From: a virus
Lineage: Duplodnaviria > Heunggongvirae > Uroviricota > Caudoviricetes
Virus record (IMG/VR): IMGVR_UViG_2684622552_000003
Strand: one strand, 5' to 3'
Length of the DNA: 4,974 nt
Made by a program: the position numbers and the translations under genes. How positions within the stretch are numbered: position 1 is the first letter of the stretch; every line of letters starts with the position of its first letter. Shown here piece after piece: positions 1,806-4,974 of this stretch. The notes beneath the pieces were generated by a model that searched no databases, was not told the DNA's origin, and saw nothing but the letters and a program-made list of their open reading frames with translations.

Positions 1806-4800
1806 ATGGCAGTAAAGATTTCAGGTGTACTGAAAGACGGCACAGGGAAACCGGTACAGAACTGCACCATTCAGCTGAAGGCAAAACGTAACAGTACCAC
1901 GGTCGTGGTGAACACGCTGGCCTCAGAAAATCCGGATGAAGCCGGGCGTTACAGCATGGACGTTGAGTACGGTCAGTACAGCGCTATTCTGATGGTGGAA
2001 GGATTCCCGCCGTCACATGCCGGGACCATCACCGTGTATGAGGATTCAAAGCCGGGGACGCTGAATGATTTTCTCGGTGCCATGACGGAGGATGATGCCC
2101 GTCCGGAGGCACTGCGCCGTTTTGAACTGATGGTGGAAGAGGTGGCGCGTAACGCGTCCGCAGTGGCACAGAACACGGCAGCCGCGAAGAAGTCAGCCAG
2201 CGATGCCAGCACATCTGCCAGTGAGGCGGCAACCCATGCGACTGATGCCGCAGGCTCAGCACGCGCAGCCAGCACGTCCGCCGGACAGGCCGCATCGTCT
2301 GCTCAGTCAGCATCTTCCAGCGCAGGAACGGCATCAACAAAGGCCACGGAAGCGTCAAAAAGTGCTGCCGCTGCAGAGTCCTCAAAAAGCGCGGCGGCCA
2401 CCAGTGCCGGTGCGGCAAAAACGTCAGAAACGAATGCGGCAGCGTCACAACAATCAGCCGCCACTTCTGCATCCACCGCGACCACGAAAGCGTCAGAAGC
2501 TGCCTCCTCAGCCAGGGATGCGTCGGCTTCAAAAGAGGCGGCAAAATCATCAGAAACGAGCGCAGCCTCGAGCGCCAGTAGTTCCGCTTCCTCGGCAACG
2601 GCGGCAGGCAATTCCGCGAAAGCGGCAAAAACGTCCGAGACGAACGCTAAGTCTTCTGAAACGGCAGCGGAACAGAGTGCCTCCGCAGCAGCAGACTCAA
2701 AAACAGCGGCTGCATCATCTGCCAGCGCCGCGTCAACAAGTGCCGGGCAGGCCTCAGCCAGTGCCACCGCTGCCGGAAAGTCGGCAGAAAGTGCCGCATC
2801 GTCTGCTTCAACAGCCACAACGAAGGCTGGCGAAGCCACTGAACAGGCCAGCGCAGCAGCGAATTCTGCTTCCGCAGCGAAGACATCCGAAACGAACGCG
2901 AAAGCGTCGGAAACCAGCGCAGAATCCTCAAAGACGGCTGCCGCATCGTCAGCCAGTTCGGCGGCGTCATCGGCATCATCTGCGTCTGCTTCAAAAGATG
3001 AGGCGACCAGACAGGCGTCAGCGGCGGCAGAGAGTGCGTCAACGGCATCCACGAAGGCGACAGAGACGGCAGGAAGTGCGACGGAGGCAGCTCAGAGCAA
3101 AAATGCGGCTGAATCCGCGGCAACGCGCGCCGAGACAGCTGCAAAACGGGCAGAGGATATTGCATCTGCCGTGGCGCTTGAGGATGCAAGCACGACGAAA
3201 AAAGGGATAGTACAGCTCAGCAGTGAGACCAGCAGCGAATCTGATACGCTCGCAGCAACACCGAAAGCGGTAAAGGCTGCAAACGACAACGCTGAAACAC
3301 GCCTTCGGAAAAACCAGAACGGGGCAGATATACCTGATAAAGACACCTTCGTAAAAAATATTGGCGCAGCGAAAGCTGCCAGCGGCAATATCAGCATCGG
3401 AGGAGACAGCAATAACTGGACGACGGCGCAATTTATCGAGTGGCTGGAGTCTAAGGGGGCGTTCAATCATTCATACTGGATGTGTAAAGGCTCATGGGCT
3501 TACGCTGCCAATAAAATCATCACGGATACCGGTTGTGGGAATATACAACTTTCTGGCGCTGTAGTTGAGGTTATGGGGGGTCGAGAGGCTATGACTATTC
3601 GCATCACCACCCCCACGACCGCAACGAACGGCGGAACCGTCAAGGCACAATTTACCTACATCAACCACGGTGACAATTATGCGCCAGGCTGGAGACGGGA
3701 CTTTAATCGAGCTGGTGATTCAATGTCAGGCCAGTTAACTTTGGCGGATATGTCACAGCCATTAAGAACACCAGGTGGTGGCATATTTGCCAATGATGGC
3801 AACTTGTATATCAATAAACCGGGTTTCGCTGGATGGATTGATGCGCTCTTTTTGAAATTAACAGGAGGCACAATAACCGGGTCGCTTACCGTTAATGGTG
3901 GCATTAAGGGTAATGCTTCAACGGCTACGAAGCTTCAAACGCCAATAAATATTAATGGTGTTAAGTTTGATGGCTCAGGTGACATCAACATTAATACCTT
4001 AGTGTCCAGAGGTATGGTGGCCGCATTAAGTGGCAATACACAAGGCACCCCAGGCGTTCAGATGTATGAAGCGTATAAAAATGGCTACCCCACGACTTAC
4101 GGCAATGTGCTTCATATGAAAGGTGCGAATGCTGCAGGAGAGGGTGAATTGCTTATCGGCTGGAGTGGTACAAGCGGTGCCCATGCTCCGGCATTTATTC
4201 GTTCACGACGGGATGCTACCGACGCAAACTGGTCGCTATGGGATCAGCTTTACACAACGGCTTATCCTCCTTCAGAGCTTTATCCTGCAGGGGCACCGAT
4301 ACCGTGGCCATCAGACACAATTCCATCTGGTTATGCTCTGATGCAGGGGCAGACTTTTGATAAATCAGCATATCCGAAACTTGCAACCGCTTACCCATCT
4401 GGTGTGATCCCTGATCTGCGTGGATGGACAATTAAGGGTAAACCCGCCAGTGGTCGCGCTGTATTGTCTCAGGAACAGGATGGTATTAAATCGCATACCC
4501 ACAGTGCCAGTGCATCCAGTACGGATTTGGGGACGAAAACAACCAGTTCGTTTGATTATGGTACTAAGTCCACGAATAACACCGGGGCGCATACACATAG
4601 TATTAGCGGGACAGCAAATAGTGCAGGTGGGCACCAACACCAGAGTTCTGGACCATATGCGAATTCTAATAGAACTGCACTCTTTCCTAACGGTTATACC
4701 CAGGTTTCAGTCACAAACGCACCAGTTGTACCACAGGAATCTGGCTCAGGTACGAGCCGTATATCAGGGAAGACATCATCAGATGGAGCACATACCCACT

Positions 4801-4974
4801 CATTGTCTGGTACTGCCGCATCTGCAGGGGCACACGCACATACTGTCGGTATTGGTGCCCATGCACACACTGTGGCGCTGGGTGCACATGGACACACCAT
4901 CACCGTTAACGCTGCTGGTAACGCGGAAAACACCGTCAAAAACATCGCATTTAACTATATTGTGAGGCTTGCAT
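1806..4974 (+). CDS. stf: Side tail fibre protein Stf (StfR-like long form), 1056 codons in the window; 3'-partial only in that the stop codon begins at the final base 4974
   Basis: My own codon-by-codon translation of frame 3 from ATG 1806 shows no stop through GCA at 4971-4973. This ORF is not in the supplied track, presumably because it lacks an in-window stop. The N-terminus [37 protein letters not shown]…[16 protein letters not shown] and the C-terminus …[10 protein letters not shown]…[33 protein letters not shown]…GIGAHAHTV…[28 protein letters not shown] match lambda Stf and Rac StfR as I recall them. The final residues RLA are the normal Stf C-terminus, so the gene ends 2 nt beyond the window. 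Confidence 0.9.
2163..3170 (+). repeat. In-frame periodic coding repeat within stf: 24 consecutive 14-codon (42-nt) units, Ala/Ser/Thr-rich, Ala at position 1 in 22 of 24 units
   Basis: Cutting the Stf translation into 14-mers from [14 protein letters not shown] (codon at 2163) gives 24 units, for example [14 protein letters not shown] / [14 protein letters not shown] / [14 protein letters not shown] / [14 protein letters not shown] / [14 protein letters not shown] / [14 protein letters not shown]. At nucleotide level the near-identical motif GC(A/G)AA(A/G)ACaTC(A/C)GA(A/G)ACGA recurs at 2415, 2541, 2625 and 2877, and the spacings of 126, 84 and 252 nt are all multiples of 42. Confidence 0.85.

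Follow-up and report, generated by a model that had tools for sequence, protein, structure and literature searches.

Seven HxH motifs and a predicted metal-binding needle in the side tail fibre tip of a lambdoid prophage

Described HxH fibres and the stf locus

The needle of the bacteriophage T4 fibre protein gp37 (PDB code 2XGF) contains seven coordinated iron atoms along its length, with H929 belonging to a metal site, and the substitutions H929A and H931A each abolish plaque formation (PMC6957217). Domain D10 of gp37 comprises residues 811-881 plus 1010-1026, and the residues that contact the receptor are 933-953 (PMC6957217). Each octahedral iron site in 2XGF is built from three copies of an HxH motif (PMC6116203). 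The extensive similarity between the tips of lambda Stf and gp37 has already been published, as has the conservation of HxH in coliphage lambda, together with the description of seven iron ions held by paired histidines in the gp37 tip (PMC11705849). The R1/R2 pyocin fibres, P2 gpV, the apex of the phi92 spike and T4 gp12 also bring three HxH motifs together into an octahedral six-histidine site on a three-fold axis, although each has one such site rather than a column of seven (PMC6116203).

The DNA analysed here, referred to as the window, is a stretch of 4974 nucleotides from a tailed virus (IMG/VR record IMGVR_UViG_2684622552_000003). Its + strand carries three genes in the order J - lom - stf.

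nt 1-1074, + strand: 3' end of the central tail fibre gene J (C-terminus of gpJ; PHROG tail fibre/J families)
nt 1142-1741, + strand: lom (PHROG Lom, E = 4e-105)
nt 1806-4973, + strand: stf, side tail fibre gene, 1056 codons, open frame from ATG

The third gene is identified as stf, encoding the side tail fibre of a lambdoid prophage, since the protein combines the prophage tail fibre N-terminal family phage_tail_N (PF08400; residues 1-134, E = 7e-71) with a Collar domain (residues 829-876 by Pfam) and the gene order is that of phage lambda. Both marks of a lambda-type Stf, the PF08400 anchor and the position after J and lom, are thus present. On the + strand, frame 3 is open from an ATG at nt 1806 up to nt 4973, where the last complete codon of the window ends; the window closes with GCA T. 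The C-terminal 11 residues lie inside it, and the stop codon falls just past its end. Searches of the PDB matched residues 1-94 to a tail fibre N-terminal chain (PDB code 9E7M, E = 3e-51), residues 495-637 to the Mu fibre S/S' (PDB code 8JU3, E = 6e-83) and residues 825-1056 to the gp37 tip (PDB code 2XGF). Stf is accordingly a mosaic of a lambda Stf anchor, an Ala/Ser-rich shaft, a Mu fibre S/S' segment and a gp37-type tip. The low-complexity shaft also produces spurious long open reading frames on both strands.

The closest complete genome is that of Escherichia coli CH4799, with 97.6% identity across 92% of the window, and its annotated prophage tail fibre is 94-98% identical to Stf. The best locus in the genome collection matched only nt 3722-4974, with 97.8% identity. 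In comparison with the Stf of Ur-lambda (orf-401/orf-314 in lambda PaPa), the position within J - lom - stf - tfa and the N-terminal anchor are shared and the tips are 67.6% identical. The two proteins differ in length (774 residues in Ur-lambda, 1056 here), the present one having a longer Ala/Ser-rich shaft and the Mu gpS-like middle segment; in addition, stf is frameshifted in lambda PaPa, whereas the reading frame is intact here. The side tail fibre of Escherichia phage mEp332 is 85.7% identical in its tip and the prophage fibres of CH4799 and Escherichia fergusonii are 98-99% identical, all with seven HxH motifs in the same places, but shaft length and middle modules differ (678 residues in mEp332 and 1124 in CH4799). 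Database names and a literature search gave no experimental characterization of the mEp332, CH4799 or E. fergusonii fibres.

The cognate chaperone gene tfa lies outside the window, which extends only to the final codon of stf. In CH4799, the fibre tip of which is 98% identical to that of Stf, an open reading frame of 191 residues directly follows stf, its start overlapping the stf stop codon; the best-matching locus of the genome collection likewise has a 191-residue open reading frame right after stf that overlaps the stop codon. The CH4799 protein shares 91% identity with lambda Tfa and 28% with T4 gp38 (E = 6e-17). By the example of these relatives, tfa presumably lies downstream of stf in this element, and a chaperone of the gp38/Tfa type would be needed here as it is for the gp37 tip.

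The HxH motifs and their register with gp37

The initial annotation had described seven in-frame HxH motifs in the C-terminal tip of Stf and had quoted a 25-residue stretch as an example of their context; the stretch occurs in Stf and all seven motifs are present in the stf frame at the positions that had been claimed.

nt 4494-4502, + strand: HxH 1, HTH, aa 897-899
nt 4590-4598, + strand: HxH 2, HTH, aa 929-931
nt 4632-4640, + strand: HxH 3, HQH, aa 943-945
nt 4791-4799, + strand: HxH 4, HTH, aa 996-998
nt 4833-4841, + strand: HxH 5, HAH, aa 1010-1012
nt 4860-4868, + strand: HxH 6, HAH, aa 1019-1021
nt 4887-4895, + strand: HxH 7, HGH, aa 1028-1030

All lie within the last 160 residues of Stf. 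Of the 20 histidines in the protein, 14 belong to these motifs, and the last 242 residues contain no others. Shuffling of the residues (n = 100 000) gave on average 0.36 HxH motifs in the whole of Stf and 0.74 in its C-terminal 242 residues; seven motifs arose in none of the 100 000 shuffles in the former case and in one of 100 000 in the latter, so that their number is far beyond chance. When the same DNA is read in its five remaining frames, each is closed, with 3-18 stops. A search for tandem or direct DNA repeats behind the motifs revealed none of note, and the repetition of HxH therefore exists at the protein level only.

When the C-terminal 316 residues of Stf were compared with all PDB chains using phmmer, the T4 gp37 tip (2XGF) was matched with E = 5e-80, query residues 85-316 aligning with chain residues 28-242, which correspond to gp37 residues 812-1026. 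The alignment reaches the C-terminus and is free of gaps at every HxH motif. In the same search, no homology of the tip to the other HxH-iron fibres and spikes was detected beyond the collar (short tail fibre, PDB code 9CUY, E = 2e-8). A tblastn comparison with T4 gave 62.1% identity at 100% coverage of the Stf tip (about 62% over 232 residues). When the tip was aligned with T4 gp37, lambda orf-314 and the mEp332 fibre using MAFFT, all 14 HxH histidines of Stf fell in columns that are histidine in every sequence aligned, their counterparts in gp37 being H883/885, H915/917, H929/931, H966/968, H980/982, H989/991 and H998/1000. The two histidines whose replacement by alanine prevents T4 from forming plaques, H929 and H931, thus correspond to Stf H943 and H945.

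Comparison with the solved gp37 tip had been put forward as the check on the proposed likeness, and by HMMER and MAFFT alike all seven Stf motifs fall on HxH motifs of gp37. The figure of seven irons that had been given for the gp37 tip agrees with the published structure (PMC6957217), and the two homologies that had been assumed, between Stf and gp37 and between Tfa and gp38, are borne out by the 2XGF match and by the similarity of the CH4799 Tfa-like protein to gp38 given above. The aligned part of 2XGF has 14 histidines per chain, all of them within HxH motifs. As this is the number that seven iron ions with six ligands each demand of three chains, every aligned gp37 histidine is a ligand and the mapping onto Stf is one-to-one.

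The intervals between successive motifs are 32, 14, 53, 14, 9 and 9 residues in Stf and 32, 14, 37, 14, 9 and 9 in gp37. The equality of all but the third indicates that the needle strands of the two proteins have the same length; the third interval spans the head, which at 53 residues against 37 is 16 residues longer in Stf. Pfam assigned the tip to Collar (PF07484, E = 4.9e-12) and to Phage_fiber (PF03335, E = 2.5e-7; 30.6 bits against a cut-off of 20, in five stretches). The latter family describes a 14-residue repeat with a GxHxHxxSGT unit, and the pairing of PF07484 with PF03335 is found in gp37 too.

Domain layout, conservation and the variable head

With the D10 boundaries carried over from gp37 by the MAFFT alignment, the tip can be divided as follows.

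nt 4278-4490, + strand: first part of the collar (knob), aa 825-895, equivalent to gp37 811-881 (PF07484; 2XGF alignment)
nt 4491-4640, + strand: predicted descending strand of the needle with HxH 1-3, aa 896-945 (HxH alignment to gp37; PF03335)
nt 4641-4790, + strand: putative distal head (receptor-binding tip) subdomain, aa 946-995, hypervariable and 16 residues longer than that of T4
nt 4791-4922, + strand: predicted ascending strand of the needle with HxH 4-7, aa 996-1039 (HxH alignment to gp37)
nt 4923-4973, + strand: second part of the collar and C-terminus, aa 1040-1056, equivalent to gp37 1010-1026

Residues 1040-1056, including the 16 that end the protein, are identical to those of lambda Stf, agree with gp37 at 14 of 17 positions and are invariant among homologues; the C-terminal motif NYIVRLA is retained in prophage tips with as little as 43% identity. 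The near-identical C-terminus, the paired Collar and Phage_fiber families and the seven motifs at homologous positions make the tip, at the level of sequence, an orthologue-grade relative of gp37 domains D10 (collar) and D11 (needle and head). It appears as an ordinary, close member of the gp37/Stf tip family, with every defining feature of that family that a sequence can reveal. The setting is another matter, since this tip sits on the side fibre of a siphovirus, anchored by an N-terminal domain of the lambda type, whereas gp37 forms the distal half-fibre of a myovirus.

Conservation was assessed with 120 database homologues of the tip having 55-99% identity, the nearest of which are proteins of E. 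fergusonii and E. coli with 95-99% identity. Each histidine column of the HxH motifs is kept in 118-120 of the 120 (at least 98%). Mean identity to Stf, taken per ten residues, drops to 0.28-0.51 across the head (aa 945-994) and is 0.8-1.0 elsewhere, which is the pattern expected when a hypervariable head is mounted on a constant scaffold. The position of the variable segment agrees with that of the receptor-contact residues 933-953 of gp37, which fall in the stretch equivalent to the Stf head. Modelling of a single chain of the 242-residue tip using AlphaFold2 (alignment of 21 sequences) gave a mean pLDDT of 44.9 and a pTM of 0.18; such low values for a monomer are expected if, as we infer, the tip is an obligately intertwined trimer.

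The head is the only part of the tip that does not copy known biology, and what is new here is this particular protein with its distinct head. It is not only longer than that of T4 but also unrelated to it in sequence, and receptor specificity therefore probably differs from that of gp37. The receptor of T4 and of Ur-lambda is OmpC and/or LPS (PMC6957217 for T4; PMC12617516 for Ur-lambda, the Stf of which was modelled on OmpC). We raise only tentatively the idea that the enlarged head (aa 946-995) recognizes something other than these; it would then represent a new specificity class mounted on a conserved seven-iron scaffold, useful for engineering host range by fibre swapping. For the most part the significance of the analysis is one of annotation, in that the Stf tip can be split with confidence into collar, needle and head. 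For host-range engineering, the prediction is that the 14 histidines must stay untouched and that aa 946-995 is the segment to swap or mutate.

A predicted metal column and the length of the needle

These observations lead us to propose, with a probability of about 0.9, that nt 4278-4973 encode the receptor-binding tip of a lambdoid Stf, related to gp37 D10-D11 and forming a trimeric needle with six-histidine metal sites. By analogy with gp37, Tfa would help three Stf chains to trimerize and intertwine. The collar would be assembled from aa 825-895 and aa 1040-1056, and each chain would run down through aa 896-945, form the head with aa 946-995 and return through aa 996-1039, the three together giving a thin six-stranded antiparallel needle of Gly, Ala, Ser and Thr. 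Such a needle would have no ordinary hydrophobic core, and ions would take its place: at each of seven axial levels, one HxH motif per chain would face inward and six imidazoles would hold one metal octahedrally. The ion would most likely be Fe(II), as in T4. A column of seven ions would pin the three chains into a rigid, very stable spike, which would hold out the hypervariable head towards a receptor in the outer membrane. The trimer fold, the occupancy of the sites and the identity of the metal are in this proposal all carried over from gp37.

The needle fold might be kept with a different ion, such as zinc, nickel or cobalt, or with sites that are partly occupied. HxH alone does not fix the identity of a metal, nothing else in the Stf sequence specifies one, and the HxH site of T4 gp12 was crystallized with zinc, though after refolding in a zinc salt (PMC6116203). 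All of the natively purified HxH structures cited, namely gp37, P2 gpV, the phi92 spike and the R1/R2 pyocin fibres and spike, nevertheless contain iron (PMC6116203), and a tip that is 62% identical to gp37, with the same ligand geometry in its sequence, makes another ion improbable here. Less likely still is a role of the iron as bait for a host siderophore-iron receptor rather than as a purely structural element, the `Ferrojan' or `Trojan horse' idea that recurs in the literature on HxH-bearing fibres (PMC11705849). The HxH histidines of Stf are invariant and the head is variable, as befits a scaffold rather than a surface used for recognition, and the irons of gp37 lie on the axis of its core. 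In the 2XGF structure they are reportedly buried. Moreover, the receptor contacts of gp37 are made by surface residues of the head and its receptors are OmpC and LPS (PMC6957217), OmpC also being the receptor used in modelling Ur-lambda Stf (PMC12617516); the bait role is accordingly very doubtful for this fibre.

The surroundings of the motifs are simple and rich in Gly, Ala, Ser and Thr, which could make HxH a by-product, with no specific role, of a low-complexity tail of His, Gly and Ala. We give this reading almost no credence: seven motifs occur in at most one of 100 000 shuffles, all 14 histidines are in register with gp37 ligands, and the histidines are conserved in at least 98% of the 120 homologues, with 93% paired as HxH in tips down to 43% identity. 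An origin by chance or composition is effectively refuted by the shuffles, the register and the conservation. The metal-column needle remains our preferred reading, and how its length varies among relatives is considered below.

With each bacterial species represented by a single genome, a scan yielded 53 distinct complete prophage tips with at least 43% identity, mostly from Enterobacterales. HxH motifs hold 656 of the 705 histidines (93%) in these tips. The number of motifs per tip ranges from four to eight, and tip length increases by about 19 residues for each motif (Spearman coefficient of 0.94 over the 53 tips). Ur-lambda Stf supplies an example, with eight motifs in contrast to the seven of the present Stf and of T4: its extra unit is the nine-residue GAHQHPVVI on the ascending strand, paired with a ten-residue duplication, SFDYGTKTTG, on the descending strand. 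The tracking of length with motif number fits such paired insertions, since a needle built as a down-and-up hairpin must grow on both strands when it gains one metal layer. Taken together, the tips suggest that needle length behaves as a modular ruler of four to eight HxH motifs, with about 19 residues per site added as paired insertions on both strands; such a ruler agrees with the published structure and is probably implicit in it.

The Stf tip is also present on shorter, unrelated fibres. In addition, an exact copy of the lambda tip was encountered on low-coverage contigs in many supposed genomes of unrelated bacteria, which indicates contamination with lambda DNA.

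Mosaic architecture of Stf and its gene neighbourhood

The order of genes in the window is that of phage lambda, in which J and then Lom precede stf. Upstream of stf lie

1-1074, central tail fibre/host-specificity protein J, C-terminal 357 residues
1142-1741, Lom, complete at 199 residues, an Ail/Lom outer-membrane β-barrel

In the closest Escherichia coli genome (CH4799, L082), a recombinase-family gene follows the chaperone gene tfa on the opposite strand (8853-9443, - strand), a position occupied by Pin-type invertases in fibre regions of the e14/Rac type.

The window Stf (1806-4973, + strand) is a four-part mosaic comprising

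residues 1-94, anchor of the lambda-Stf type, matching the N-terminal chain of a tail fibre (PDB code 9E7M; E = 3e-51)
residues ~135-470, low-complexity shaft rich in Ala, Ser and Thr
residues 445-637, middle segment, matching the tail fibre S/S' of phage Mu (PDB code 8JU3, E = 6e-83; also 5YVQ)
residues 825-1056, tip, matching the tip of T4 gp37

The Ala/Ser-rich shaft DNA (window 2029-3210) also gives rise to long uninterrupted ORFs, both in the remaining frames and on the complementary strand:

2203-3210, + strand, 335 residues, rich in Arg, Pro and Gln
2303-3052, - strand, 249 residues
2029-2628, - strand, 199 residues

Base composition almost certainly accounts for these additional ORFs, which may be likened to orf206b, annotated within stf of phage lambda, and they are best regarded as artefacts.

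Horizontal exchange indicated for the tip

The tip recurs at 95-100% amino-acid identity on much shorter, unrelated fibres of 539 residues (locus L004 of the genome collection, 3110-4729) and 403 residues (database protein P0004), and the nucleotide similarity between L004 and the window begins only at window position 3722. These observations indicate that the tip has moved between fibres as a module by horizontal exchange.

Number of HxH motifs and length of the needle

Across 53 distinct prophage tips (L004-L081), the number of HxH motifs ranges from four to eight, with ∼19 residues of additional tip length per motif (Spearman coefficient 0.94); the motifs hold 93% of all tip histidines. The eighth site of lambda is paired with insertions of ten residues in the descending strand and nine in the ascending strand of the needle. 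T4 gp37 (L001) possesses an eighth motif, HYH 742 (residues 742-744), located upstream of the crystallized fragment. The window Stf lacks a counterpart of this motif, as neither its His 770 nor its His 793 belongs to a pair.

Identical copies of the lambda stf tip, with eight HxH motifs and 68% identity to the query, occur (L009-L020 and L051) on low-coverage contigs, several of them ∼48.5 kb in length, in assemblies labelled Chromatium, Pseudomonas, Shewanella, Neobacillus, Paenibacillus, Kitasatospora, Bradyrhizobium and others. These copies most likely represent contamination of the assemblies with lambda DNA.
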